In this document: positions 13,390-40,659 of the stretch, in pieces
Position numbering within the stretch: position 1 is the stretch's first letter
Layout of the letters: each line of letters opens with the position of its first letter
DNA from: Oligoflexales bacterium
Lineage (GTDB): Bacteria > Bdellovibrionota_B > Oligoflexia > Oligoflexales > Bog-1112
Direction of reading: 5' to 3'
Assembly (NCBI GenBank): GCA_045106415.1
Contig: JBGCEP010000008.1
Coordinates: forward strand, 1-40,659
DNA: 40,659 nt
Translations under genes and position numbers: made by a program
The notes under the pieces: generated by a model
Told to the model about the DNA's origin: nothing
The model's input: the letters and a program-made list of their open reading frames with translations, nothing else
The model's database searches: none

Positions 13390-14406
13390 CTAATTTCTAA
13401 AATTATTAATTTCAGACAAAATCATCACAATAAAATCAAACCACTTTCTGTGAGTATAAAAATTAATATTTGCGCCATCTACTACAGCGTAGCCATGATC
13501 AACAATCAATTTATCTAAGTAATCAACTTCCCCTTGCTGGACGGAGATAATCTGGCCATCAGATGACTTCCTGTGAACCAAAACACCAAAAAAATCTTTA
13601 GGGATTAATGTATTAACATATTTAATTGTTGAATAGGATTGTGTTTTACGCATAAGAAGTGGAGGTAAAAAATCTAACGTTAACAACCTAAAGTTTTCAG
13701 AACCCTCTTTCAACACCGCATGTGATTTGAGATTTTTTTGAAGAAAAGTATTCTTTTCAAAATTAAGCTCTATTAGATTTCTGATATCAGTATAAGAAAA
13801 AACCGAACAAGAAAATAAATCTTTTTGTCGTTTCACTGCCGACATAATAACATCAATTTTAACTTCTCCTAAATAAGAGAAGACCTCATTTTGCATATCT
13901 TCAATTAAATATTCATCAAAGCCCAGTGAATCAAATATAAATATCTCTAACTCTTGATATTGGTGAATTAAAACAATTGGGCATAAGTGAGGATCCTCAT
14001 AAGTCTCGTTATCTCTATATAGAATCACATAGTCAACTTTTCTGTCACTCATCGAGGGTGTAGCATTACTTTTTATTAAATCTTTAAGTTCACTTAAAGA
14101 ACAAAAATGTATATTCCAATCTTTCCATGCTTCAGCTTGATCACGCTTTAAATACCGCTCAACAAGATCAAGACCTTTCGGACGTATGAAAATATAGTCT
14201 TCGTCTTTTAAAAAATAATCCTTGAGATGATGTGTGTCCAAATTCTCTAAAATTAATTTATGCATCTTTTCAAGATTTTCAGGAGATTTCACTAGAGAAA
14301 AATTTTTAGCTCTCTCTAAGACTTCATCAAACTGTAAAGGCGCACCTAATAAATTTAAATTTGCGAGCGTAAATATTATCAATACAATACGGAGAAAAAT
14401 TTTCAT
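13390..14406 (-). CDS. Secreted CE-clan (YopJ/AvrA-like or Ulp1-like) cysteine-dependent enzyme
   Basis: Signal peptide MKIFLRIVLIIFTLANLNLLGA; H(LCP)-19aa-D(SLG)...RQKDLFSC.VFS...LPPLLMRKTQS. Confidence 0.6.
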   Translation of the reverse strand: MKIFLRIVLIIFTLANLNLLGAPLQFDEVLERAKNFSLVKSPENLEKMHKLILENLDTHHLKDYFLKDEDYIFIRPKGLDLVERYLKRDQAEAWKDWNIHFCSLSELKDLIKSNATPSMSDRKVDYVILYRDNETYEDPHLCPIVLIHQYQELEIFIFDSLGFDEYLIEDMQNEVFSYLGEVKIDVIMSAVKRQKDLFSCSVFSYTDIRNLIELNFEKNTFLQKNLKSHAVLKEGSENFRLLTLDFLPPLLMRKTQSYSTIKYVNTLIPKDFFGVLVHRKSSDGQIISVQQGEVDYLDKLIVDHGYAVVDGANINFYTHRKWFDFIVMILSEINNFRN

Positions 14407-14711
14407 AAAAACCCTTAAAAAACCAAAACGTGATAACTTTATAATCAAATAATTAACAATGTAACCATACTTCTGGATTTTAAATTTTTGCTGAAACACC
14501 CATATTAATTTAGGGCCTATATAAGATGAGCCTAATCTATCTCAATTCAAGTCACTAAGAAAAGAAATATGTGCAATTTTCTAAATACCTTGCATAAACG
14601 GCAGGATACTACACAAAAACCTAAAGGAAACCTTCATATAATCATAAAAACTCAACTCAGATAAACCTTGGGATTCTCTAGGGAAACACAACAATCAAAA
14701 AACTATCTCCT

Positions 14712-21547: not shown

Positions 21548-22612
21548 ATGAAACCTTACATCCAAGCTTTTATTTGTCTGTTCCTATGGAGCTTTAAGAT
21601 TTACAGTGCTCCTGCGCTCAGAAAAATACTCGCCACTCAAGATATTTCCATTGAAAAAAAAGACCGAGCTATTTTTTTCATAAAAAAGCTCCAATCGACA
21701 CAACTCACAGCAGCATCGACAACAAGTAGACGTGTTGAAAAAAAAACAGTCATACCTGAAGCAGTGTTAAAGAGCGCTCTTCAAAATCTTTATGCCCATC
21801 CCGAGGCCAAATTTTCACGAAGAGACCAACTACAAGCAGGTGAGACAAATAAAACATTTACCTTTTATGGCGCTTCCGTTGCTTTCCGGCAAAAAAATCT
21901 AAAAACAAAGATAAAGCTACGAGCACGATTTTACTTGAAGATCGATAAAAATGGGAACACTCTACGCTCTCAACCAGGGCATGGTTTTTTAGAGCTTAAA
22001 ATTAAAAATCCTTTACCTGGTCAAAGAGGGGTCCATAAATATAGAATCAAGCTACGTGATGACCTCATCTTTCAAGTTTTCACAAACCCGGCCTATACTG
22101 ACGAATTTCAGTTAGCTCTTCAAAATATTAAGGAAAGCCTTTCCCCTTCCTCTAAAGAATACCAGACAGCACTTATTATGTTAGAGGCTACCGAATATTT
22201 TTCTAATATTGACTCACGTTTTTCTCAGCCCGTCCTAGGGGTTTCATACACAAGAGATTCCTACCAGCAAGATATCCTTTCACACAACGTTCAAATCACA
22301 CTCGATCGCAATGTACAAGCTTACCTTCCTTACCAAATCAATCACTTAAATACATTTGACGATTATCTCTTTGAAGAGGCGGCAAAAGATCTCACACACA
22401 CTTACCCTAGTGATATTGTGGTTCTTGAACTCAAAGAGCCCATGCAAATAAGCTTGAAAAAAACTTTTAAAAAAGACTCTCTTCTAGAAAGACTTCGACT
22501 CTTCAGACAACATGCCTTCTGCCGCGCTTACGTTTCTTCTGGCTTTGACATCGAAAGAAACAGAGGCAAAGCTGGGACCATCCGAAACCTGCTCTATGAA
22601 AAATATTTATAA
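21548..22612 (+). CDS. VTC/CYTH (triphosphate tunnel, polyphosphate-polymerase-domain) protein with signal peptide
   Basis: RRVEKK, KLRARFY, FLELKIK, KYRIKL, P...VSYTR.SY, QITLDRNV, VVLELKEP; hydrophobic N-terminus ending IYSA. Confidence 0.7.
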   Translation: MKPYIQAFICLFLWSFKIYSAPALRKILATQDISIEKKDRAIFFIKKLQSTQLTAASTTSRRVEKKTVIPEAVLKSALQNLYAHPEAKFSRRDQLQAGETNKTFTFYGASVAFRQKNLKTKIKLRARFYLKIDKNGNTLRSQPGHGFLELKIKNPLPGQRGVHKYRIKLRDDLIFQVFTNPAYTDEFQLALQNIKESLSPSSKEYQTALIMLEATEYFSNIDSRFSQPVLGVSYTRDSYQQDILSHNVQITLDRNVQAYLPYQINHLNTFDDYLFEEAAKDLTHTYPSDIVVLELKEPMQISLKKTFKKDSLLERLRLFRQHAFCRAYVSSGFDIERNRGKAGTIRNLLYEKYL

Positions 22613-23257: not shown

Positions 23258-26215
23258 TTAAAAAAATGAGAACTTTGCTCGTGAGCTGCTGTAACCTGAG
23301 TCTTCTAGAATTTCAATAATTTCTAGGTTGGTTTTCAACCACTCTTTGAAAGGCTCACTTACTTTATCTGGTGAGGCACGACGCACACTCAATCCTGTTT
23401 CTCCAACATGTTCACGAAGCTGTGAAGCAATATCACGGCGCATGGCATCAAGATGAAGGAATATGGATTCTTTTCCAACTTTATCACTATCCAGCCCTAA
23501 AGGTGAACTCAATAAAGTTGCTGCTTCAAGACGAGTCTTGGCATCAAAAATATAATCTTGCAACATCACCTTTGGTTTTTTTGTCTCTGAAATAAACACA
23601 ACACCTACGAGTTGATTCTTCCTAGCATCACTTCTAGAAGATAGGACAAACTCAGATAAGCTGGTGATTGCCTCAACAAGCTCATCACACCCTTCCTCAA
23701 TCTCCATATAGGAAGACACTTCATTCACTCTTGCTAAGGTTTGATAAACAACCTCTTTGGCAAGTCTTAGAAGGTCTTTAGATATGTTTTTCTTAATGAA
23801 GGCACGCTCTTCTTGAGAAAATGTAACTTTCCGTCCATCGGCAGCTGTAAAATCACGATTCGTATCTTCAAATAGCTTTTCTACAACTTTATTCACATCG
23901 GCTTTTAAATCAGATGGCCATTGAACTTCATGCGAAGGAACATCGTCGATTTTTTCAACGTTCTCACCATGCTCTTCATCAACTTCTCCATCTGAAAGTT
24001 GGTCAAATCCTTTTTTCCATTCTGAGTCTGATTTCAAGGAGCTTTCTAAGAGACTTTTTAAGGATATCGATCCTAAGTCAATACTCACTTCAGAGCCTTC
24101 AGCATCAACGGATCCTTGGTAATCACCGTCTTCTTCATAAGGAGCGACTCCTTCAACTGGTAGACCTGTCGCCCTTACAATCGCAAATAAAGATTTAACA
24201 ACTCCACCGATGTCTCGAAATTGTTTTTTCAGCCAATCTTTTTTGTACTTTTCTATCGCTTTTGGGTCACCATGAAGCTTCACAAGGTCATCATGATTCT
24301 GAAGATTTCTCCACCCTGAGTTCGTCATCCATGACAGAGCGATATCCAAAGGTCCTAAAAGACGATCCACAATTTTACTCACAGGAATCCGAACATCTTG
24401 GACTCTTTTTTGGTCTTCAGACGTCTCAGAGGTTCCTGCCTTACCACGTATATATGGCTCTACAAGCCAAGAAGCAAGATTCTTAAGATCATTTCTCTGG
24501 TCATAATGAACATCAGCAAGTGGATTAGCAAAAGTTCTCCAAGGACCGCAATCAGCAAATTTTTGAGCTTGAGCATCAGAGCAATAAGCTAACTCAACAC
24601 TAGGATCACACTCTTTCCAGCTTGCATCATAGCCCCATTCAATTGCTTTTTGATCATAATGCAACAATTCGCGTCTTTGAATTTTTTGCCCTATTAAGAC
24701 ACTCACTTCAAAGTTTGAGTAATGCATCACAGAAGAAGCAAGTTCAGGAATTTCTACAGACTCACCGCTTAAGTAGTTTTGGTATAGATTTTCCAGCTCT
24801 TTTGGTGTCACTTTGTTTTCTAAGTGCGCAGCAAAGTTATGTCGAAGACCCATTGTATGACCGACTTCATGAGCCACAACTGAAGCAACGTAATCTTGCG
24901 CAACACGCAGTGCAAGTTCATTTGCTAGACTGTCAGGCATACTGGTTAATGTTTGTTGAAGACCAGGTAAGAATTGATGAAATTTATGACTTTGTTGGCA
25001 CATAGAATTTGTATGCGCATCTTCTTCAGAAGCGTTTGAAGAAAATGATTGAGGGCATTTCAAAGATTGAAGGCGCCTTCTATTTTTTCTTTCTTCGGGT
25101 GTAAAGTCTTCATCCATCTCATCCGCATTAACTTGTGTATTTAAAATAGCACGGACTCTTTGCAACGATCCAAATGCAAACGCTGATGTTAAAAATACCT
25201 GCGCATGATGAATTTCACCACTTAGAGGGTCAGCTAAGACATCTGCATAAGCAAAACCCGCTTTATCCCAACGCACCCATTCAATCAAATTGTAATCAGG
25301 ATGAGGAGCTTGAATACCTTCTGGAGCGTCAACAACTTCGACAACTTCTCTTCCAAAAGCTTCATTCCAATATAAAATACCACGACGAACAGCTTCTCTA
25401 TACTCATCTGGAATTTTATGTGACAACGCATAAACGATCGTTTTTTGATGATTCCATTTTAAAACATGACCAAATGGAGTGCCATCATGCCGTTTAATTT
25501 GAGAGTGTGTTTCAAAGTAGCCAACTTTTTTAAATTGTCCACCTTTTCTCTGTTGAAAAGCTTGAGAATCAGTACGAGTCCTCTTTCTCTTCTTTTTCGT
25601 TAAATGGTTATCATCACCTTCAAGGCGTTTTAGAAAAAAACGTTCTTGGATAGGGACCTGTGCCAAAATACGCATATTCATTTTGACATCTTTCACGAAA
25701 CGATCAACAACAACTTCCTGTGCATCTTGTGAAAGAATCACATGGCTGACCCACGGTAAGATTTGAGGCTGTTGAATCGTGTACCCATGAAAAGAACGAC
25801 CTTTTTCATCTGGAGCATCGTACCACGCCTCTAGTTCACCCCCAAAGCCCTCTGAAGCCAAACGAATATAAATAGCATCATTGCTTTCATCTAAAATACG
25901 AAAACGTGCGAGCAATGTTTTCGCATCATCATGGTCAACACTCTGACCATCTGCAGCCTGAAACATCAACAAACTGCTGTATCCATCTAAAACAAGGCAA
26001 GAGTCATCTTTTTCAAAATACACTCGATAAGACTTCTTCGATTCAAACATCGGCGCAGAGCGCTGCTGAATAGCAGTCATATGCAGGACATAAGAATGGC
26101 CGCTTTCTATATCAGCAGCAGGTAAACCAATAGATTTCTGCGCTGTGTTGATAGTCAAGACATGAGCCTGAGCAACTGGCAACAAAAGCAACGCACAGAG
26201 CAACAAACGAACCAT
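23258..26215 (-). CDS. Secreted zinc-dependent metalloprotease (metzincin, DUF4953/EcxA-like)
   Basis: Signal peptide ...AQA; GILYWNEAF, DPLSGEI..A, HEVGHTMGLRHNF, Met-turn SSVMHY, YD..AI.WGY. Confidence 0.9.
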   Translation of the reverse strand: MVRLLLCALLLLPVAQAHVLTINTAQKSIGLPAADIESGHSYVLHMTAIQQRSAPMFESKKSYRVYFEKDDSCLVLDGYSSLLMFQAADGQSVDHDDAKTLLARFRILDESNDAIYIRLASEGFGGELEAWYDAPDEKGRSFHGYTIQQPQILPWVSHVILSQDAQEVVVDRFVKDVKMNMRILAQVPIQERFFLKRLEGDDNHLTKKKRKRTRTDSQAFQQRKGGQFKKVGYFETHSQIKRHDGTPFGHVLKWNHQKTIVYALSHKIPDEYREAVRRGILYWNEAFGREVVEVVDAPEGIQAPHPDYNLIEWVRWDKAGFAYADVLADPLSGEIHHAQVFLTSAFAFGSLQRVRAILNTQVNADEMDEDFTPEERKNRRRLQSLKCPQSFSSNASEEDAHTNSMCQQSHKFHQFLPGLQQTLTSMPDSLANELALRVAQDYVASVVAHEVGHTMGLRHNFAAHLENKVTPKELENLYQNYLSGESVEIPELASSVMHYSNFEVSVLIGQKIQRRELLHYDQKAIEWGYDASWKECDPSVELAYCSDAQAQKFADCGPWRTFANPLADVHYDQRNDLKNLASWLVEPYIRGKAGTSETSEDQKRVQDVRIPVSKIVDRLLGPLDIALSWMTNSGWRNLQNHDDLVKLHGDPKAIEKYKKDWLKKQFRDIGGVVKSLFAIVRATGLPVEGVAPYEEDGDYQGSVDAEGSEVSIDLGSISLKSLLESSLKSDSEWKKGFDQLSDGEVDEEHGENVEKIDDVPSHEVQWPSDLKADVNKVVEKLFEDTNRDFTAADGRKVTFSQEERAFIKKNISKDLLRLAKEVVYQTLARVNEVSSYMEIEEGCDELVEAITSLSEFVLSSRSDARKNQLVGVVFISETKKPKVMLQDYIFDAKTRLEAATLLSSPLGLDSDKVGKESIFLHLDAMRRDIASQLREHVGETGLSVRRASPDKVSEPFKEWLKTNLEIIEILEDSGYSSSRAKFSFF

Positions 26216-26278: not shown

Positions 26279-26398
26279 CACTATATTTATAATCCAGCTC
26301 ATTTATAATAGGAAAAATCAATAAGGCCGTGTCTTTCTTAGCTCAATAATGGTTTAATGGCCTAAATTTCATCCACAGATCCCCTTCATGAGGTGTGC

Positions 26399-27436
26399 AT
26401 GTTCTCAGCGATTCAAGTCCAAAACGGAGATTTAAAACTGTTAGACCAAAGACTGTTGCCTGATCAAGAGGTCTGGATCACCTGTAAAACGCATGAAGAT
26501 GTGGCTACCGCCATTGAAAACATGACTGTACGAGGGGCTCCTGCAATTGGTTGCGCAGCTGCTTTTGGCCTCGCGATAGCAGCCTCAGAAGCAGAACACA
26601 GGGACTCTACAGACTTTAAATCTTATATACAAAAAGCAGCAAAACGTTTAAGCCAAACTCGTCCGACAGCAGTCAACCTTTTTCACGCTTTGCAAAAAGT
26701 AGAGTCTTCAGCTATAAGCCAAAATTATGCGAAAACAGCAAAAGAATGTGCTTGGACAATTGCTCACAAAATTTACAGCGACGATTTAAAAACGTGTCAA
26801 AGAATAGGTGAAAACGGATCAAGGGCTCTTCAAGGAAAAAACCTAAGGATCATGACTCATTGCAACGCAGGTGGAATTGCCACAACGGGTTATGGGACAG
26901 CCCTAGGAGTCATTCAAAATTTATTCGACAATCGCAGACTTGAAAAAGTCTACGTGAATGAAACAAGGCCATGGCTACAAGGTGCTCGTCTTACAACTTG
27001 GGAGCTTCTTCGTTCAGATATCCCATGCCAACTTGGAACAGATTCAAGCGCAGGCATCCTTATGCAGCAAAATCTTATCGACGCAGTCATTGTTGGAGCA
27101 GATCGTATTGCTATGAACGGAGATACTGCCAATAAGATTGGCACTTACTCTCTCGCTGTGCTAGCTAATTTCCATAAAATTCCTTTTTACATTGCCGCAC
27201 CAAAATCTACTTTTGACTCAAATATTCAAGATGGACAGGGAATTCCAATTGAAACAAGACCTCCAGAAGAAATTACTCACTTCAAAGGTACAGCCATAGC
27301 ACCCATGGATGTTCCTGCGTACAACCCTTCATTTGACATCACCCCTCACACACTCATCACAGCTTACATCACAGAAAAAGGTAATCTTGCTCCTGATCAA
27401 ATCAGTCAGACTTTCAATGATGAAGTCTTACTGTAG
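26399..27436 (+). CDS. mtnA: S-methyl-5-thioribose-1-phosphate isomerase
   Basis: LDQRLLP, MTVRGAPAIG, TRPTAVNL, THCNAG, ETRPWLQGARLT, GADRI..NGDTANKIGTY, NPSFDITP. Confidence 0.96.
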   Translation: MFSAIQVQNGDLKLLDQRLLPDQEVWITCKTHEDVATAIENMTVRGAPAIGCAAAFGLAIAASEAEHRDSTDFKSYIQKAAKRLSQTRPTAVNLFHALQKVESSAISQNYAKTAKECAWTIAHKIYSDDLKTCQRIGENGSRALQGKNLRIMTHCNAGGIATTGYGTALGVIQNLFDNRRLEKVYVNETRPWLQGARLTTWELLRSDIPCQLGTDSSAGILMQQNLIDAVIVGADRIAMNGDTANKIGTYSLAVLANFHKIPFYIAAPKSTFDSNIQDGQGIPIETRPPEEITHFKGTAIAPMDVPAYNPSFDITPHTLITAYITEKGNLAPDQISQTFNDEVLL

Positions 27437-27719: not shown

Positions 27720-30700
27720 TTATAAATCCGCTGCGGGCAAAGAATCCCCCATTTCGGAAGCTCCGTCACCTTTGTGGACTCCTCCGTCTCCAGTTCCTAG
27801 TTTTCCATAGTCATTATTACCCCAGCATTTCACCGTATGATTGTCGAGAAGAGCGCAAGCCGCTTCTACACCTAATTCAACTTGTGTAGCATGGCGTCCT
27901 GTTCCTAAATCAATAGCTGATAAGTTATCGCCCATTTCCCCTGCGTCATCGCCGATTCTATCCGTATTTCCTTTTCCTAATTGACCGTAGTTATTCTCTC
28001 CCCAGCACTTCAAATCATTATTATCAAGAATGGCACAAATAAAATAATCCCCTACAGAAACTTGAGATACGGTTCGACCCACTCCTAAATCAATGACCGC
28101 TAAACTATCTCCCATTTCCCCTGCACCATCGCCGTGATCCTCTGAAGAGGCATTTCCTAACTGACCCTGAAACCCTTCTCCCCAACATTTTAAATCAGCA
28201 TTATCAAGAATAGCGCAAGTATTGTATCCTCCTGCGCTTATAGAAACAGGGGTTCTTCCTGTTCCTAGATCAATAGCGGCTAAGTTATCGCCCATCTCTG
28301 ATGCTGCGTCCCCTGTCTGGGAATCAATTTCTTGACCGACAGCACCATGCGGACCATATCCCCAACATTTCATGTCACTATTATCCAAAACAGCGCATGT
28401 ATGTAAAAATCCTGCTACTATTTTTGTTGCTGTTCGACCTGTGCCAAGTTCTGCATATGCAAGGGAATCCCCCATTTCCCCTGCGCCATCACCGATATTA
28501 TTTGTTGAGCCAATGCCTAGCTGTCCTGCGTTGTTGCGTCCCCAACACTTCACTTTCCCATTGTCTAAAATAGCGCAGTGATGTTGAAGACCTGACGCAA
28601 TATCAACTGCCGTTCGAGCAGTTCCTAAATTGACAGAAGCAAGAGAGTCTCCCATCTCACCTGGAGAGTTGCCAATACTGACTGAGTTCGATTCATTACC
28701 TAGTTGCCCTAAATATTCTGTTCCCCAGCATTTGACAATCCCATTATCTAAAACAGCGCAGCTACTATGATCTGCTGTTGCAATTTTGGTAATGCTACGT
28801 CCTGTGCCTAAATCGACAAAAGGTAAATTGGTACCCATTTCAGATGAGCCATCTCCAGCGTGACTTCCGCTACCTATACCTGCTTGCCCATTTTCATTTC
28901 TCCCCCAGCATTTAAGACTGTTGTCAGAAAAAATGCCACAAAATGTCGATCCTATAGCTTTTTGCAAGGTTGATATTGTTCTTGCTGTAAAACCATCACC
29001 GTTGGATACGACCCCAATATTTCCTGCTGTATCAGTTGCTCGGATTGTAGCGTAATAAGTCAAACCTTCAGTAAGATCCAAACCCGTTAATGTAATTGAA
29101 GTCACAAGACCAACGTTTTGCCAAGTAAGAGTGTTTATCGCACCTGAAGAGGTACCAAGGGCAACTTCATAATAAGCGACTCCTGATGTTGCATCACTGC
29201 TTGCACTCCATGACATTGCAGGGCTGACTTCAGAGTTTAAGTTAAAGGCTCCGTCAACAAAAGACCCTGGTGCAGACGGAGCGACGTTATCATGAAGAAT
29301 TGTATCCGAAACACAACTGGATTCATTCCCTGCTTCGTCCTTAAACTGAGCGTAAACTGTTGCCGTTGCATTTGTTTGAGCTAAGGACCAACCTGTTTTC
29401 GTTGTTGAGTATGCTTCCCAGCTTCCACCTGAGCCACATGCTGCAGTGTTTGTCACAAGCATCTCACTTGCATCTACAGCTGAAGGCGATAAAGCAACCG
29501 TTGTACTGATCGATGTTGCAGCCCCACTTGATATTGTTAAAGAAGGTGATAAAGGTGCGATATTATCGTGCACGATCGTATCGTTGATACAAGTTGATGT
29601 ATTTCCAGCTTCATCTTTGAATTTGACGTAAACGGTTGCTGTTGCATTTGTTTGTCCTAAACTCCAACCCGCTTTCGATGTTGCATAACTTTCCCAACTT
29701 CCATCTGCAGCACAGCCTGAAGTATTAGTCACATACATCTCCGATGCACCAGCTGCACTTAGTGTTAAATCAGGTGTTTCATCTGCTATATGTGTTCCAC
29801 CATCAATAGCAATGGAATGACTCGAAGGAGCTAGTGAATCATGTGTAATAGAATCATTGATACAGTTCGATTCATTACCAGCTTCATCCTTAAACTTCAC
29901 ATAAACTGTTGCTAAGGCATTCGTTTGACCTAAAGACCAACCTGCTTTCGATGTCGCATAACTCTCCCAAGAGCCGTCAGCACCACAACCTGCTGTATTT
30001 GTCACATACATCTCACTTGCACCAACAGCTGAAAGAGTGAGGTCAGGAGTACTATCGGATGTGTGTGTACCTGCACTAAAAATAATAGAAACACTGGATG
30101 GAGCTATCGAATCATGAGTCACCGTATCATTCACACAGCTTGATTCATTACCAGCTTCATCCTTGAACTTAACATAGACTGTCGTTAACGCGTTTGTTTG
30201 GCTTAAAGTCCACGATAACTTTGACACACCATAATTTTCCCAAGTTCCATCGCTATTACACCCAGCTGTATTTGTCACATACATTGCTGTTGCATCAGTT
30301 GCACTCAAAGTAAGATTGGGGGATGTTTCAGAAATAAAGTCTCCCCCATCAATCACAAGTGACGGAGACTGAGGAGCAACACTGTCATGTAACACAGCAT
30401 CAGAGATACAGTTCGTTTCGTTCAAAGCAACATCTCGGAATTTAGCATACAGTGTATTCGATTGATTTGAGTTTGGCAGCGTCACGCTCTTAGAAGTTTG
30501 ATACTCTTCCCAGTTTCCACCTATGCTACAGCTGGAATCTTCTGTTATATACACTTCAGATGCATCACTAACATCAAAATTAAATGTTGTATTTAGAAAT
30601 GAAACAACTCCGGCACCAGAAGCAAGGTTAGCTTGATTAATAACTGGTTTTGTGACGTCAACTGTATAAGATAAACTCACCTGACTACAGTTACCAGGAG

Positions 30701-32030
30701 CATCAGATTTTGACATTTTTGCATAAAAAACATGAGGCCCTTCCGTCAATGTCGGGAGAGACATTTGAATTGTTTGAGTTGTTGCTGTACCTGAAACCAA
30801 AAGGTTCCCACAAGTTTGATCACTATAAATTCCGACAACCGCTCCAGATTCAACACCGTCAACTTGAAGAACCGGTCTCAATTCAGAAGAGTTTGACAAC
30901 ACAGGAGAAACAAGGCTTAAACCTGTCGGTGCAGATAAGTCTGTCAATAGAGTGTATGATAAATAAGAACGCGAACACGCCCCAAGGCCACCATGACTAT
31001 TTTCCGCACGGGCATAAAATTGATAAGCCCCCACTTTACTTAGCCTAGGACTCAATGAAAGAGCTCCACCTACTGACGCTTGTAATGAAACCAAAGCGTC
31101 TCCATCACAATTTTCATTTGTATACACAGAAACGATATCTCCTGCTAATACAGGCTCTAAAGAAAGAACGGGTGTTGCACTTAAGCCAGCAGACTTTTCA
31201 GTTGTTATCCCCGTGATTTCTTGCGCTCCTAAAATAAAAGTACCTACAAGATTTGTCGGCTTAAAACAAATAGATTGGTCTCTCAGCTCTCCTGTATAAA
31301 GAGTTCTTGTTTTATTCCAATCTAAGAAAGTCATAGTAGTAACATTGGACGATTTCAAATCCCAGCATAGGTCAATATCTTTACTTAACCACTCTGACAC
31401 CTCTTGTCCAGAATCGTCTAAAACGCCACCTTGCATGACACCTTTTTTTTCTGCGTCTTCCACAAAATAAATCTGATCCGCTTTCACTGTCGACGAATCA
31501 TAAGTCATCTTCAGTGTGCCATTTATAAAATCTTTTTCAAAAACAAGCGCTTCTCCCAATTGAGTTTTTTCTTCAAATACAACTGAAAAAAGACCTGGAA
31601 GTGATTGTGTTTGTATGCAAATTTTTCCAGCACTTTGTACTCCATCCACCTCAGTACTATCACTCCCATCAAGGGCACTAATTTTTACTTTCGACGCATC
31701 TAAAGTGCTTTCTGAAATATTAAGACAAACTTTAACGTCTTTGTTTATTTTTGGTGTCGAAGTCTGTTCACTTCGAGCAGTAATAATAAGAGCATATTCA
31801 CCTGTATCTTTTACATCAAACATCACTGGTGATTCAAAAGTTCCTTCTAATACATTCACAGAACCATTTAAAGTTTCTACAGTAACTTCTTCTGTATGTG
31901 GTATGATTTTTGATTCGCTAGCATTTTTCACACCAACTTCAACACCGTTCAGAGATCTCGTGCTAGAAACCTTTTCTCCTTCGCAAGACAGAAGACTCCA
32001 CACAACAATTAAGGTTTGAATAAACTTCAT
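27720..32030 (-). CDS. Large surface lipoprotein: Ig-like repeat stalk, FN3-like domain and C-terminal RCC1/BLIP-II beta-propeller
   Basis: Lipobox LLSC after MKFIQ (ATG 32030, GGGGG RBS); tandem ~91-aa repeats; WSASSD..SGV..YEV (FN3-like); seven CWG..GQ.G repeats. Confidence 0.88.
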   Translation of the reverse strand: MKFIQTLIVVWSLLSCEGEKVSSTRSLNGVEVGVKNASESKIIPHTEEVTVETLNGSVNVLEGTFESPVMFDVKDTGEYALIITARSEQTSTPKINKDVKVCLNISESTLDASKVKISALDGSDSTEVDGVQSAGKICIQTQSLPGLFSVVFEEKTQLGEALVFEKDFINGTLKMTYDSSTVKADQIYFVEDAEKKGVMQGGVLDDSGQEVSEWLSKDIDLCWDLKSSNVTTMTFLDWNKTRTLYTGELRDQSICFKPTNLVGTFILGAQEITGITTEKSAGLSATPVLSLEPVLAGDIVSVYTNENCDGDALVSLQASVGGALSLSPRLSKVGAYQFYARAENSHGGLGACSRSYLSYTLLTDLSAPTGLSLVSPVLSNSSELRPVLQVDGVESGAVVGIYSDQTCGNLLVSGTATTQTIQMSLPTLTEGPHVFYAKMSKSDAPGNCSQVSLSYTVDVTKPVINQANLASGAGVVSFLNTTFNFDVSDASEVYITEDSSCSIGGNWEEYQTSKSVTLPNSNQSNTLYAKFRDVALNETNCISDAVLHDSVAPQSPSLVIDGGDFISETSPNLTLSATDATAMYVTNTAGCNSDGTWENYGVSKLSWTLSQTNALTTVYVKFKDEAGNESSCVNDTVTHDSIAPSSVSIIFSAGTHTSDSTPDLTLSAVGASEMYVTNTAGCGADGSWESYATSKAGWSLGQTNALATVYVKFKDEAGNESNCINDSITHDSLAPSSHSIAIDGGTHIADETPDLTLSAAGASEMYVTNTSGCAADGSWESYATSKAGWSLGQTNATATVYVKFKDEAGNTSTCINDTIVHDNIAPLSPSLTISSGAATSISTTVALSPSAVDASEMLVTNTAACGSGGSWEAYSTTKTGWSLAQTNATATVYAQFKDEAGNESSCVSDTILHDNVAPSAPGSFVDGAFNLNSEVSPAMSWSASSDATSGVAYYEVALGTSSGAINTLTWQNVGLVTSITLTGLDLTEGLTYYATIRATDTAGNIGVVSNGDGFTARTISTLQKAIGSTFCGIFSDNSLKCWGRNENGQAGIGSGSHAGDGSSEMGTNLPFVDLGTGRSITKIATADHSSCAVLDNGIVKCWGTEYLGQLGNESNSVSIGNSPGEMGDSLASVNLGTARTAVDIASGLQHHCAILDNGKVKCWGRNNAGQLGIGSTNNIGDGAGEMGDSLAYAELGTGRTATKIVAGFLHTCAVLDNSDMKCWGYGPHGAVGQEIDSQTGDAASEMGDNLAAIDLGTGRTPVSISAGGYNTCAILDNADLKCWGEGFQGQLGNASSEDHGDGAGEMGDSLAVIDLGVGRTVSQVSVGDYFICAILDNNDLKCWGENNYGQLGKGNTDRIGDDAGEMGDNLSAIDLGTGRHATQVELGVEAACALLDNHTVKCWGNNDYGKLGTGDGGVHKGDGASEMGDSLPAADL
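27725..28965 (-). repeat. Seven ~180-bp RCC1/BLIP-II-like coding repeats
   Basis: CA.LDN...KCWG....GQLG....GD...EMGD.L...DLG.GR units; CWG codons near 28902, 28723, 28540, 28360, 28180, 28000, 27820. Confidence 0.9.
29275..30620 (-). repeat. Five ~273-bp (91-aa) Ig-like coding repeats
   Basis: ASEMYVTNTAGC...G.WE.Y...W.L.QTNA..TVYVKFKDEAGN.S.C..D...HD..AP; TCACATACAT recurs at ~273-bp spacing. Confidence 0.9.
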
Positions 32031-32061
32031 ACTGCCCCCTGTCGATGATTCATACTTAGGC

Positions 32062-32089
32062 TGTTCGGATTCTAATTTAAAAAAGTTAA
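32062..32089 (-). promoter_or_regulatory. sigma28/FliA-like promoter
   Basis: TTAA-N16-TCCGAACA about 32 nt upstream of ATG 32030. Confidence 0.45.
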
Positions 32090-32760
32090 ATTTTTTTAAA
32101 CAAATATAGAAATGATAATTCCCCACAATATTCCCTCTATAACCATTTAAAAATAAAGGTGAATATTCTCATTCAGATAATTTTTATTCTACAAACAATA
32201 TCAATCTATATCCGAACCCAGATTTAAAAAACAAAAATACCGAGACAGACATGCTTATATAATCGATGCCGATCCGTTCAAAGTAACCTTCTTTTAATTT
32301 TATTTTCGCTTAATAATCCCAGGGTCGAGACAAATTTGATCGTCACTTTGGTTTGATAAAGAGATTGAATTCAGTTTAAAAGATAATAAATCTCTAATGG
32401 CCTAGGGTTGCAGACAATATTTGATTCTTCAGCTATCTAAAATAGACTTAATTTTTTTATGATCATTTCACACACCTAAGAATCAGAATGACACGAAGTT
32501 GTTTGATTTTTTTACAGCGTTGTAAAATATGAAGAGGATGAATTCTATCGCAATAATGAAAAAATGTCACAAACACGAGCTCAAAATTCACTATTAATTA
32601 AGGATATTTAAGAAAAAAGAAGAGAATTAAAAAATCGCCACTTTAGTCATAATTAATGTCGGACATCAAGATATCTTTTAAAAAACATTAGAGAAATTTA
32701 TTGAATATGCGAATATCATTCGTTCTACACACATAAAATAAAACATTTAAAAAATACTTC

Positions 32761-33945: not shown

Positions 33946-35289
33946 TTAAATATCTTCATGACCTTGTGGGCACACAAGCTCATTAATATAAAACCTGTTT
34001 TGCCGCCAAATTAATGGAGACTGACAAACACTACATTTCAGCTTTGTTTCTTGAGATTCTTTAAAATTTAGTTTAAAGAGCCCCATTTTCATACCCTCTA
34101 AGCTTCTCAAATCATCACGTTCAATAAAATCCCATTTTAAATCTCTAAAATGATTTCGAATTGAATAAAACAATCGACCCGTTAGAACAACTTCTCCTTG
34201 CTCTGCAGCACTACTTATTCTCGAAGCAACGTGAACTTCTTGACCATCTGGCGTAAAATCAAACTGCTCATCTGAACCAAAAAAACCTAGACTTGCAGGC
34301 CCCATAGAACCACCAATACGAATTCCTAGTTGGTCCACATGAAATTCACCGCGAATGTCATTAATATACTCTTCCCAAGATGCGAAAAGCTCCTGCATAA
34401 AACGTACAAGTTTCTCTTCCCACATAGGATTATTATAATTAGCCACCAATAGAACACCATCACCTAAAAATTTAGGGACTAAAACTCCATGCTCACCTCC
34501 TAGTTTGACACATAGATTAAAAAAATCGATCTTAATTTTACTAAACAATGGCTTTGGTGCAATCTGCCCAAACGCTGTCGAGCCAGAAAGGTCAGCGAAG
34601 AGCACAGCCATACTATCAAAATAATTTTCTTTATTAAGTGTCCATTTACCTTCTTTAGCTTCTTCTCTAATACGTTTGGGGACAGTTAATCTCAGACATT
34701 CTTCATTTTTAAGAGAATCAAACTCATGCTCCCTAACCTGAACATCTCTTCTTATTTTTTCTACAATAAGTCCATATACAGCTAAAAAACAACCTTGTGC
34801 CAAAATATAACTCACTGCTAATATTTTATGTGGAAGATCTGAACTTTCAGGAATAAGAACTGCTATTAATAAAGAAAAAGATGAAATGATAATGAAAAAT
34901 ATTCCAAAAATCGTCGGCAAAAAAAGGCTCATGAAAACAGTTGTTGCTGTAATCAAAGCTCCAGTAAGATATACAGAATCAGCTCCTCCAGTCAAAGAAA
35001 CCATATAAGCTGTGAAAACACACGGGAGAAGTCCTGCAAAAATACTTCCAAACATTAGAAAATTAAATGATTTAATTTTATAAGTTGCATAAAAGACAAC
35101 CAGGTAAATGATAGAAGCTAAAAAACGAAGAGATATAAATTGAGTGGCATACTCAGGGACTAATTCTATATCAAAAAAACTAAATAATAGAAAAAAGGGA
35201 ACAGCAATCACTGTCAGATATTTAAATCCATGCCTAGTATAATTCGATTGTGTTTCATCATTCAATTCAATGTTAATCGAACTAGACAT
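33946..35289 (-). CDS. Membrane-bound class III adenylate/guanylate cyclase (about 6 TM) with C-terminal Zn ribbon
   Basis: VLFADLSGST, KFLGDG, IRIG...G, DFT..G..VHVASR; CSVC...CPQGH tail. Confidence 0.88.
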   Translation of the reverse strand: MSSSINIELNDETQSNYTRHGFKYLTVIAVPFFLLFSFFDIELVPEYATQFISLRFLASIIYLVVFYATYKIKSFNFLMFGSIFAGLLPCVFTAYMVSLTGGADSVYLTGALITATTVFMSLFLPTIFGIFFIIISSFSLLIAVLIPESSDLPHKILAVSYILAQGCFLAVYGLIVEKIRRDVQVREHEFDSLKNEECLRLTVPKRIREEAKEGKWTLNKENYFDSMAVLFADLSGSTAFGQIAPKPLFSKIKIDFFNLCVKLGGEHGVLVPKFLGDGVLLVANYNNPMWEEKLVRFMQELFASWEEYINDIRGEFHVDQLGIRIGGSMGPASLGFFGSDEQFDFTPDGQEVHVASRISSAAEQGEVVLTGRLFYSIRNHFRDLKWDFIERDDLRSLEGMKMGLFKLNFKESQETKLKCSVCQSPLIWRQNRFYINELVCPQGHEDI

Positions 35290-35320
35290 AGAGACTGCTG
35301 TTCCAAAAGTTAAATTATCA

Positions 35321-36727
35321 TTAATATTTCATACATAAAAAATATTGATTTCCGCCTTCATCTTTTTCTATTTTTGCATCCGGACAATCATCTGGTGCAA
35401 CTTTTAGTAGTTCCTCTTCAGACCTTAACTCTAAAACCCAATCAACAAGACACTCACCTATTGTTTTTGAGTAGCACTCTTTAGAGAAATTCCCAACTAC
35501 CATTTCACTTTTATTTTTTGTCAAGTGACCTGTAAGAATTTGAGTTAAACGACGCGCAGCTCCATAGTTTAAGTAATCATAAAGACCTGCGCTATAGACC
35601 ATATCGTACTTCATATCTTTTGGACCTGGAGGAGTTCCATTATAAAGATCTCGCACGCCTGTTTGGCTGTAGTGAACAATAGCCTTAAGCTGTTTGGAAA
35701 GAAGAATATTTGAAATTCTTGTTTTTGCATCAAGAAGCGCATTCACATCTTGGTCCATAAGAACAAATTCAAATCTATTGACAATTTCTGGGTCGGATGT
35801 TTCAAAAAAATGCGCGACTTCTTGTGCTGGACCACAGCCTACGGATAAAACCTTAAGTCTTTTATCAGGGTTTTTCTTGGCAAACTCTTCAAACTTATGA
35901 ACAAACATCCCCCTTCGCAAACGCACCGACTGACACGCAGGCTCTTCATTAAAATACATATGCATTAAAGAGCCAAAAGTATCAGAACTCTCAGGTACAT
36001 GCCTGTACATTTGATTCATCATTTCAAAATCGCCTGCATAGCCTAGAGGCTTCTCATAAGACCTTTTTAGAATTGGTGCATCAGATAAATATTTCATTAA
36101 GTTATGACGAAAAAATCGTATACAACTTTCTTTAATAGAAGGCTCAAAAATTTCATCACGGATATTATCAACAGATTTACTAAAATCCAACATCCGTTTG
36201 ATAAATGATGGTCCAATTAATTGAATAATGGCTCTTTTTGATTGTTGTCTTTTTTGTTCTGAAAGAACCATCATTGAATTTTCATAATCTTGAATTTGAT
36301 TTTTCACAACCGAAAGATAGTGGTCAATATCATAAACTAAAGACTTTAATGTATTTGGAATGTTCGAATATTCGTGGTCTGCAATTTCAATCATAGGCTT
36401 AATTTTCCAGCAAGAAGCAATCGCAGAAACCATGCCTGCTCCACCTTCAATTTCTTGAAAATAACATCCCGTCCTCTGATCATCTACCCATCGACATTCC
36501 AGTTGACCTTGCACAACAACTTCTTCACTATCTGGAGTCATAATTTGAAAACTCAAAGACTCTTTATCCTCTACACTACCTTCAAAACAACACCCAAAGT
36601 CAGAAACATCAATAAGATTATAGTCCTTATCTCCAACTCGAATTTTTAAATCAGAACCAATTTCTAAAAATCGATCATGCCTTAGTACATAACTAGGACT
36701 TTCATCTTTCTTAAATGCTACAGACAT
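35321..36727 (-). CDS. PilZ-like domain + class I SAM-dependent methyltransferase (PhcB-like)
   Basis: N-terminal LRHDRF...DVSDFG...CRW....G (PilZ-like); KPLGYAGDFEMMN, VLSVGCGPA.E, MDQD, YDMVYSAGLYDYL, VGNF, W.L..R. Confidence 0.8.
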   Translation of the reverse strand: MSVAFKKDESPSYVLRHDRFLEIGSDLKIRVGDKDYNLIDVSDFGCCFEGSVEDKESLSFQIMTPDSEEVVVQGQLECRWVDDQRTGCYFQEIEGGAGMVSAIASCWKIKPMIEIADHEYSNIPNTLKSLVYDIDHYLSVVKNQIQDYENSMMVLSEQKRQQSKRAIIQLIGPSFIKRMLDFSKSVDNIRDEIFEPSIKESCIRFFRHNLMKYLSDAPILKRSYEKPLGYAGDFEMMNQMYRHVPESSDTFGSLMHMYFNEEPACQSVRLRRGMFVHKFEEFAKKNPDKRLKVLSVGCGPAQEVAHFFETSDPEIVNRFEFVLMDQDVNALLDAKTRISNILLSKQLKAIVHYSQTGVRDLYNGTPPGPKDMKYDMVYSAGLYDYLNYGAARRLTQILTGHLTKNKSEMVVGNFSKECYSKTIGECLVDWVLELRSEEELLKVAPDDCPDAKIEKDEGGNQYFLCMKY

Positions 36728-36820
36728 ATTCCCCCCCTTGATAACGTCATAAAGCGTATCGGCATCGCGGGAAAATATCAAAACCATAAACACCTTAACT
36801 CACTAACATCAAAGCAATTA

Positions 36821-37015
36821 TTAATTATAAGGGCAATTAAAGCAGTCATTTTCACAACAATAACCTCTCTTTAATAAATATTCTCTGCTCAATATCATAA
36901 GGCCATCTTTGCTCCATTCAAAATCAACACCTTCGATAAGTAAATCATTACTTTTATCATTTTCTGTCATATCTTTTTCATTTTTATCTTTTTTTGCATT
37001 CATACTCACCTTCAT
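36821..37015 (-). CDS. Small Cys-rich protein (DUF5522-like)
   Basis: G.MIL...YLLKRGYCC...C.NCPY motif. Confidence 0.75.
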   Translation of the reverse strand: MKVSMNAKKDKNEKDMTENDKSNDLLIEGVDFEWSKDGLMILSREYLLKRGYCCENDCFNCPYN

Positions 37016-39965: not shown

Positions 39966-40659
39966 TAGCATTGGCCAAATTTATTTACTCATTATCTTCA
40001 AAGCTATACAAGCAGCATCATAAATAGAATCACATCCATCCCTGAGAACTTTTCGTATTTTTGTTTTAACTTGATGCCACTTGTGTTCGATAGGATTAAG
40101 ATCTGGACTATACGGAGGAAGGTATAGAACTTCTGCCCCATACTCTTGAGCTATTTGAACAATATCTGAGGACTTATGAAATGAAGCATTATCAAGTACA
40201 ATAACCGTGTTTCCATCTAAATGTGGGATTAAAACCTTCTCAAGGTAAGCATTCAAAACCTCTGCTGTGCAACTTCCTTCAAATACAAATGGAGCAATAA
40301 TTTCGTTATGGTTGTTGAGTGATCCAATGATATTAATAGCTTTATCTTGTGAACTTTCTTTTAAACCATGGAGCCTGGAACTTTTATGACTCCATCCATG
40401 TTGACAGGATTCATTTTTCTTAACGCCACATTCATCGAGATAAATAATGTTTTTATCCTTTTATTATTTATTTCCTTTTGAAAGTCACTCCGATTTTTAT
40501 CGCAGAGATTTTTGTATCCAAATGTTTTTTTTATTTGTAAAACCGATAAGCCGCAAGTATCGACGAATACTCCGTGGAGAAATATCCCCCCAATCTTGAG
40601 CCATTTCTTCGGAACTTCTATCAGGTTTTTCTTCTACAAATTTTCTAAATTTTTCCAAG
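39964..40659 (-). mobile_element. IS630-family element (runs off the right edge), transposase frameshifted
   Basis: YLDECG, IIAPFVFEG, VLDNASFH, LPPYSPDLNPIE..W; A8 slippage site 40525-40532 (T.KK/T) plus a second frameshift near 40460; ends at ...GCTATA (TA target). Confidence 0.92.

Follow-up and report, generated by a model that had tools for sequence, protein, structure and literature searches.

Does a single two-gene unit in an Oligoflexales bacterium both make a chemical signal and convert it into cyclic AMP (cAMP)? The question is raised by two neighbouring genes in contig JBGCEP010000008.1, of which the whole 40,659 nucleotides (nt), referred to here as the window, were analysed; the source genome assembly is 2.95 Mb in size and 93.8% complete. 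A first-pass annotation had described two co-directional genes 31 bp apart, and this arrangement was recovered exactly on the minus strand: a PhcB-family class I S-adenosylmethionine (SAM) methyltransferase, P0001 (35321..36727, 468 amino acids (aa) counted from the ATG at 36727), is followed by a sensor cyclase, P0002 (33946..35289, 447 aa). Because the neighbour 12 bp past the P0002 stop is convergent, the unit consists of two genes. The locus is real and conserved, a variant of phc signalling whose output is a cyclase and whose receptor and synthase are predicted to be tethered, and this one two-protein unit likely makes a lipid-like signal and converts it into cAMP.

The methyltransferase and the sensor cyclase

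The motifs on which the PhcB-like identification of P0001 had been based (KPLGYAGDFEMM, CGPAQE, YSAGLYDYL and GNF) are all found in its translation. A search returned 188 homologues, many of them carrying the PhcB label of the Joint Genome Institute (JGI). No model in Pfam or NCBIfam names P0001 or the membrane domain of P0002, and no sequence relative of P0001 was found among solved structures. PhcB of Cupriavidus and PhcS of Janthinobacterium, under the names assigned by their sources, were used as stand-ins for the Ralstonia proteins. P0001 matches the named PhcB of Cupriavidus necator N-1 at 26% identity (278 aa, pairwise E 1e-24), and the family profiles of the two align over their full length with a probability of 100% across 451 columns. 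In the structural model of P0001 (predicted local distance difference test (pLDDT) 91.7), a barrel of six strands is followed by a helical middle region and then by the class I methyltransferase core. This core (35324..36082, minus strand, residues 216-468) carries KPLGYAGD, GxG (G297-G299), D325 and YSAGLYDYL; its best fold match is the uncharacterised Bordetella protein 3ocj (Z 19.6, root mean square deviation (rmsd) 3.3 Å, 244 residues), followed by small-molecule methyltransferases. P0001 thus combines the full-length homology, class I SAM fold and KPLGYAGD, GPA.E and AGL.DY motifs of the PhcB family.

Membership in the family is not identity with PhcB. In a quick tree of 64 rows, to which 34 of the 55 kinase loci described below were offered and from which rows shorter than 381 aa were dropped, PhcB and the Burkholderiales rows form one group (support 100) that does not contain P0001. 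Instead, P0001, whose branch is long, groups with cyclase-linked Bdellovibrionota rows apart from the PhcB clade, and its closest rows include Oligoflexia records. The earlier identification therefore stands as to family and falls short as to clade: P0001 is a PhcB-family member and not a strict orthologue, and an identical product to that of PhcB cannot be presumed.

The model of P0002 (pLDDT 79.7) starts with six membrane helices, which a long helical linker joins to a class III cyclase domain, and ends in a small beta tail, in agreement with the earlier description of a six-helix adenylate cyclase. The membrane domain (34765..35229, minus strand, about residues 21-175) is of the PhcS type. 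It matches the named Janthinobacterium PhcS with a pairwise E of 7e-7, and a profile made solely of 20 kinase-linked sensors, one of them named PhcS, has P0002 (E 7.5e-13) as its single match in the genome at E<=0.01; the profiles of cyclase-linked and kinase-linked sensors match at 99.85% over 179 columns. Both further proposals for this gene, a PhcS-type sensor encoded directly after the synthase and a cyclase in place of the kinase, are borne out.

The class III nucleotide cyclase domain (34060..34629, minus strand, residues 221-410) scores 34 bits against PF00211 (cut-off 21.9) and superposes on Pseudomonas aeruginosa CyaB with Z 22.8 and an rmsd of 2.3 Å over 189 residues. A phmmer search also matched P0002 residues 73-381 to 7yzi (E 7.3e-11). 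We would like to note that the fold-search lists are dominated by catalytic domains, so that the membrane domain and the tail were barely probed by them. The fold, the two aspartates, the lysine, the threonine and the arginine expected of class III enzymes are present: D233 and D277, which we take to bind metal, are kept in 23/23 aligned relatives, R357, presumably catalytic, in 22/23, and T346 and K273, presumably recognising adenine, in 21/23 and 16/23. K273 and T346 point to ATP as the substrate, and R395 occupies a site that is usually Lys. The transition-state Asn is absent, its site being H353 in P0002, where 18/23 relatives have Asn and 4/23 have Pro. This substitution, the replacement of K273 in 7/23 relatives and the low Pfam score are what would be expected if the cyclase domain were weak, dead or making another cyclic nucleotide, with the receptor mainly binding the enzyme. 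The near-complete retention of the metal aspartates, R357 and T346 and the close CyaB fold match argue otherwise, and mycobacterial Rv1900c is an active cyclase with His at the Asn site; we regard such a loss of output as quite improbable.

The best-known relative of the pair is the phcBSRQ system of the Ralstonia solanacearum complex and Cupriavidus, in which PhcB is the synthase of the methyl ester of 3-hydroxypalmitic acid (3-OH PAME) or that of 3-hydroxymyristic acid (3-OH MAME), a secreted signal (PMC7694676, PMC6989110). The two share the enzyme family and its length, the synthase-then-sensor order and a homologous six-helix sensor. They differ in that PhcS is a kinase whereas P0002 has a cyclase, in that PhcR and PhcQ belong to the operon whereas the two-gene unit has neither, and in the zinc ribbon predicted to bind the enzyme, which is a feature of P0002. 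A six-helix quorum receptor is able to drive a class III cyclase in the CqsS-Rv1625c chimera (PMC4821796), which shares with P0002 the architecture of six-helix domain, helical linker and class III cyclase; the chimera is engineered from a Vibrio receptor, whereas P0002 occurs in nature, beside the gene of a candidate ligand synthase. Neither PhcS nor Ralstonia occurs in the text of PMC4821796. Mycobacterium tuberculosis Rv1625c/Cya and the catalytic domain of CyaB likewise share architecture and fold with P0002, which differs from them in its PhcS-type membrane sequence, zinc-ribbon tail, linked methyltransferase and His at the Asn site.

Pairing and output across genomes

A scan of genome contigs with the single protein gave no matches, whereas an alignment-based search gave at least 557 relatives, of which the best 80 were kept, making this a biased sample. 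Any enzyme match at all was found in 15/61 related genomes. The 103 loci collected were reduced to 94 distinct ones by skipping seven repeats or fragments and dropping two duplicates. A PhcS-type sensor lies directly downstream of the enzyme in 85/94, which upholds the conservation of the pair. The paired loci span many phyla, with a gene gap usually within 40 bp, and their output is a kinase in 55, a cyclase in 27 (mostly Bdellovibrionota, and including the P0001-P0002 locus) and out of reach in three, where only the membrane part is available. Among the nine loci with no downstream sensor, two end at a contig end, two are from Leptospira and five have no PhcS-type sensor in reach. The Leptospira loci (L019:2762-4546 and L053:2717-4576) show a third type of output: upstream of the methyltransferase they encode a SpoIIE phosphatase to which a PhcS-type membrane domain is fused.

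The same relationship was recovered starting from the receptor. The sensor profiles were built from 38 partners, 37 of them from the counted loci, so that scores within a group are circular and those across groups are not. When 104 genomes of the phylum were searched with the receptor, 13 full-length places emerged. Eleven of them were already known through the enzyme; the other two are new sensor-cyclases (G088 and G068), found independently of the enzyme, and in both the enzyme is encoded directly upstream. The enzyme and sensor trees agree with a rank correlation of 0.70 overall, 0.82 for the 27 cyclase pairs and 0.84 for the kinase pairs, values from which shared ancestry was not removed. 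In both trees three kinase pairs are nested within the cyclase-linked part, although the branch of one of the three is long and unsure; this indicates that enzyme and sensor stayed together while the output was exchanged. That the two genes are chance neighbours with no shared function would be in keeping with the occurrence of both domains apart as well. Nevertheless, close pairing over many phyla, congruent trees and the complex predicted below make mere adjacency very unlikely indeed.

A few loci stand out in their own right. The genome of L134, in which no PhcB-like match was found, encodes an alpha/beta-hydrolase fused ahead of a PhcS-type sensor and hybrid kinase (L134:2361-6116, plus strand); this hydrolase could be a signal-degrading or an alternative signal-making partner. 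In both trees L036 (Saccharimonadales) and L071 (Bifidobacteriaceae) cluster with rows from Acidobacteria and Verrucomicrobia, and their contigs are possibly mis-binned. A short enzyme relative on a Rhizobium plasmid lies head to head with a GGDEF-EAL gene (L144:1652-4864), and short enzyme matches of this plasmid type occur in 124 plasmid records. Literature searches combining PhcB with adenylate cyclase, PhcB with PilZ, and Bdellovibrio with phcB found no such pair by title or abstract, and work under subscription or unpublished may exist.

A copy of the pair is probably present in Bdellovibrio bacteriovorus HD100, a non-pathogen that can be cultured and is amenable to laboratory work, where Bd3071 (annotated as 'regulatory protein', 488 aa) and Bd3072 (annotated as adenylate cyclase, 480 aa) are listed in the supplement of PMC3627812. 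They match locus L009 of a different B. bacteriovorus strain, whose proteins are homologous to P0001 and P0002, in gene sizes and order, in the upstream gap of 175 nt and in having a LysR gene three places further along; the match is thus one of size and order and not of sequence. The L009 cyclase has Pro at the Asn site. Expression of Bd3071 and Bd3072 is reported as higher in attack phase (41 vs 10 and 194 vs 85 reads per kilobase per million mapped reads (RPKM)), with Bd3071 classed as silent in the same table (PMC3627812), and bd3072 has been named as under study (PMC6717892). Supplements of a transposon-sequencing (TnSeq) paper contain no rows for Bd3071 or Bd3072.

The zinc ribbon and its predicted docking

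The beta tail of P0002 is a C-terminal zinc ribbon (33958..34047, minus strand; C419, C422, C440 and H444). It is present in 23/23 complete cyclase partners, four further partners being cut off. Neither this ribbon nor H353 nor the DUF5522 gene described below had been remarked on in the first-pass annotation. The ribbon profile found no match in kinase loci, which is weak evidence, since the same profile detected the ribbons of the two new sensor-cyclases poorly (E 0.8 and no match), though the cysteines of both align. By eye, no ribbon motif was seen in 14 kinase tails or in ten sequences of partners or third genes. The domain is similar to generic zinc ribbons and only weakly so to Trm112: Trm112p (PF03966) matches P0002 below threshold (E 0.057, 13.8 bits against a cut-off of 22) and is not among the 25 commonest families across 21 members.

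The ribbon is predicted to dock on the methyltransferase. Enzyme residues 12-468 and receptor residues 172-447 were modelled together, with an alignment for each, and gave a complex score of 0.69, the best of three controls scoring 0.00. The mark applied to this score is reached by 116/157 solved and 2/215 mismatched pairs, which is a rough guide given that own alignments were used here. The runs share at least 48% of contacts, partner pLDDT is at least 72, and the confident contacts join ribbon residues 415-439 to enzyme residues 226-231, 358-364, 385-394 and 429-433. When alignment columns were ranked by being hydrophobic with a cyclase and charged with a kinase, interface positions 393, 389 and 363 came 1st, 6th and 12th of 361, position 393 being hydrophobic in 25/27 cyclase-linked and 7/55 kinase-linked enzymes; the remaining 17 interface positions are unremarkable in this contrast. 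Trm112 is a small zinc-binding module bound to class I methyltransferases, pairing with a methyltransferase strand of the 350-354 type, and 5cm2 is listed among the fold matches of P0001. The modelled ribbon steers clear of strand 350-354, so P0002 differs from Trm112 complexes in its contacts as well as in having only the sub-threshold match. Likeness to solved complexes of zinc modules with methyltransferases could contribute to the docking score. Similar in logic is RpfC-RpfF of Xanthomonas, a receptor that binds and controls its own signal synthase (cited in PMC6989110); the proteins are unrelated, and RpfC-RpfF uses a receiver domain where P0002 would use its ribbon.

The predicted contacts take in the family motifs at 226-231 and 385-387, which would also suit an enzyme that methylates its receptor, in the manner of CheR-like adaptation, with the ribbon as tether or substrate and the N-terminal PilZ-fold domain as regulator. 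Some homologues give weak CheR matches, and PilZ control of CheR occurs in Pseudomonas. PhcB and the ribbon-less kinase-linked members, however, carry the same motifs without variation, the top fold matches are the Bordetella protein and small-molecule methyltransferases, and the product of PhcB is a small molecule; protein methylation thus seems improbable. A tether would also favour local hand-over, as in a private intracellular sensor, distinct from a quorum circuit, whose enzyme methylates a cell or prey lipid and passes it to the receptor beside it, or takes that receptor's ligand away by methylating it, with cAMP reporting lipid or SAM status within a single cell. The absence of a downstream response regulator in a two-gene unit whose next gene converges, and the patchy presence among relatives, are consistent with this. 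Against it, the signal made by PhcB, the family member that has been characterised, is secreted (PMC7694676, PMC6989110), and the sensors with no enzyme in genome G061 suit detection of an outside signal. We consider a private sensor unlikely, if less so than protein methylation.

Possible inputs, mechanism and wider meaning

The first-pass annotation had proposed that the PhcB-like methyltransferase carries a PilZ-like N-terminus and that signal synthesis is gated by cyclic di-GMP (c-di-GMP). The fold itself is confirmed by structure: residues 15-110 (36398..36685, minus strand) form six strands followed by a helix, with template-modelling (TM) scores of 0.69-0.79 to PilZ models by query. The P0001 N-terminus has no Pfam PilZ match, and close homologues do pass the PF07238 cut-off. 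The domain carries RxxR (R16, R19; RHDR) and DxSxxG (D40, S42, G45; DVSDFG), the latter kept in 25/27 cyclase-linked enzymes. The canonical c-di-GMP-binding PilZ motif is RxxxR, which P0001 lacks and which only 6/27 cyclase-linked enzymes have, RxxR being found in 26/27. Gating of P0001 by c-di-GMP is therefore doubtful, and the conservation of RxxR and DxSxxG suggests some ligand site in the domain. A literature search for RxxR PilZ domains brought up nothing that bears on them.

Nor is the domain probably new relative to PhcB. Direct profile comparison of the cyclase-linked and PhcB N-termini was not significant (probability 0.15%), whereas Myxococcota-type homologues link the two in steps of 97% and then 59% (E 9e-5), and the Atlas gives a weak PilZ lead for PhcB (0.86, 27% of members). 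PhcB has lost both the RxxR and the DxSxxG that the P0001 N-terminus keeps. The PilZ-like domain is thus probably ancestral to the enzyme family and degenerate in PhcB. Arg 22 (P0385 numbering) lies inside this probable degenerate domain; all of 18 betaproteobacterial homologues of PhcB have it, and the substitution R22C in Ralstonia lowers signal output (PMC6989110), which together argue that the degenerate domain matters for signal synthesis.

A second possible input is transcriptional. The GCCGATAC box noted earlier is present at 36763-36756, 36 nt ahead of the P0001 ATG, and forms the -10 element of a FliA (sigma-28)-like promoter (36756..36783, minus strand, TTTTG-N16-CCGATA), a candidate by its letters. 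The Bdellovibrio FliA consensus is TTAAG-N16-CCGATA (PMC3627812); against it the -10 box is exact and the -35 is weak, with 3/5 matches at the right spacing. A G-rich putative ribosome-binding site (36731..36739, minus strand) lies 3 nt 5' of the ATG, and the P0001 reading frame stays open beyond this ATG up to a GTG at 36793. The source genome has a FliA gene. CCGATA occurs 5' of the enzyme in 7/25 cyclase loci (1.06 expected) vs 2/52 kinase loci (2.04 expected). Genome-wide, GCCGATA is enriched near starts, 29/216 sites being intergenic and 16-129 nt before a start, compared with 0-4% for five permuted words and 17/216 for its reverse complement; the count excludes the P0001 box, which is located inside the open 5' frame extension. 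These sites are probably a FliA regulon. GCCGATAC is not over-represented across the whole genome (34 vs about 50 expected), GCCGATA was found within 250 nt upstream of 0/8 flagellin-domain matches in the source genome, and sigma-70 and terminator scans gave signals at chance level only. FliA control of the gene pair is plausible on this evidence. The source genome encodes, by domain matches, eight flagellin-domain, five cyclic-nucleotide (cNMP)-binding, five GGDEF and three class III cyclase genes.

Just upstream of the promoter box lies a cysteine-rich DUF5522 gene of 64 aa (36821-37015, minus strand; PF17653, E 1.4e-11), which we kept out of the system because its motif was seen in no other enzyme locus examined. 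Elsewhere in the window, the minus strand encodes a weak match to YopJ-family acetyltransferases (13390-14499, E 0.0022, below cut-off), a Met-zincin metalloprotease of 985 aa with DUF4953 (23258-26215) and a protein of 1468 aa that has Ig-like repeats and, at its C-terminus, an RCC1-like propeller (27720-32126). On the plus strand are a VTC-domain protein (21548-22612, E 2.6e-9) and an IF-2B-family gene (26393-27436), which we take to be the methionine-salvage isomerase MtnA. Gene fragments of an IS605 TnpB-like and a DDE_3 transposase lie near the contig ends (435-806, plus strand, and 39981-40256, minus strand).

We narrowly favour a reading in which a methylated lipid signal is produced by the enzyme and bound by the six-helix domain, which thereby switches the synthesis of cAMP, while the ribbon keeps the enzyme tethered for feedback. 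By the PhcB precedent, the enzyme would use SAM to methylate a 3-hydroxy fatty acid or similar acid, giving a diffusible signal, which may not equal 3-OH PAME or 3-OH MAME. Binding in the six-helix domain, as judged from PhcS and the CqsS-Rv1625c chimera, would be passed through the helical linker to the cyclase dimer, which by K273 and T346 would convert ATP to cAMP. The ribbon is predicted to dock beside the KPLGYAG and DYL motifs, through which the state of the receptor would be able to tune signal synthesis. Full signal output in Ralstonia depends on PhcQ, and a PhcQ-PhcB contact has been proposed (PMC6989110); the ribbon may take the role that PhcQ appears to play genetically there. The PilZ-fold domain as a nucleotide input and FliA control would be uncertain additions to this scheme.

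Several observations pull the other way. Among the positions invariant in the 18 PhcB homologues, P0001 keeps 41/78 in the catalytic region, 4/34 in the N-terminus and 0/19 between. The 41 retained positions count in favour of a PhcB-like enzyme, and the 37/78 changed ones against it, and to these are added its place outside the PhcB clade and the His at its Asn site. The bias of the locus sample, the five loci in which the enzyme has no PhcS-type sensor in reach, and short enzyme relatives on Rhizobium plasmids that adjoin other genes all weaken the case for a fixed pair, as do G061 (94% complete), with three sensor-kinase fusions and no enzyme match, and G027, G073 and G077, with weaker six-helix cyclases and no enzyme. 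As to docking, only 7/44 blind neighbour pairs passed in the tool's own benchmark, kinship confounds the column contrast, and P0001 itself has R393 and G389, unlike most cyclase-linked enzymes; since family alignments were used, the docking model may therefore fit the family better than P0001.

A broader version, that Bdellovibrionota including HD100 use a make-and-sense complex in which a lipid methyl ester gates the cyclase, the ribbon controls the synthase and the RxxR PilZ domain reads a nucleotide, is put forward tentatively and is rather unlikely to hold in full. On that version, predatory bacteria would have a cell-cell signal, and the native ligand of a bacterial membrane cyclase would be made by its neighbour. 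A receptor role for the six-helix anchors of class III cyclases has been argued from chimeras and from lipid effects without a mapped site (PMC4821796, PMC12414865). Here a candidate ligand synthase adjoins the cyclase in 27 loci, so that a ligand can be sought directly. If the favoured reading is true, phc signalling would reach far beyond Ralstonia, a receptor would tether its own synthase through a zinc ribbon, and the Bdellovibrio cAMP sensor Bd1971 would gain a candidate upstream input.

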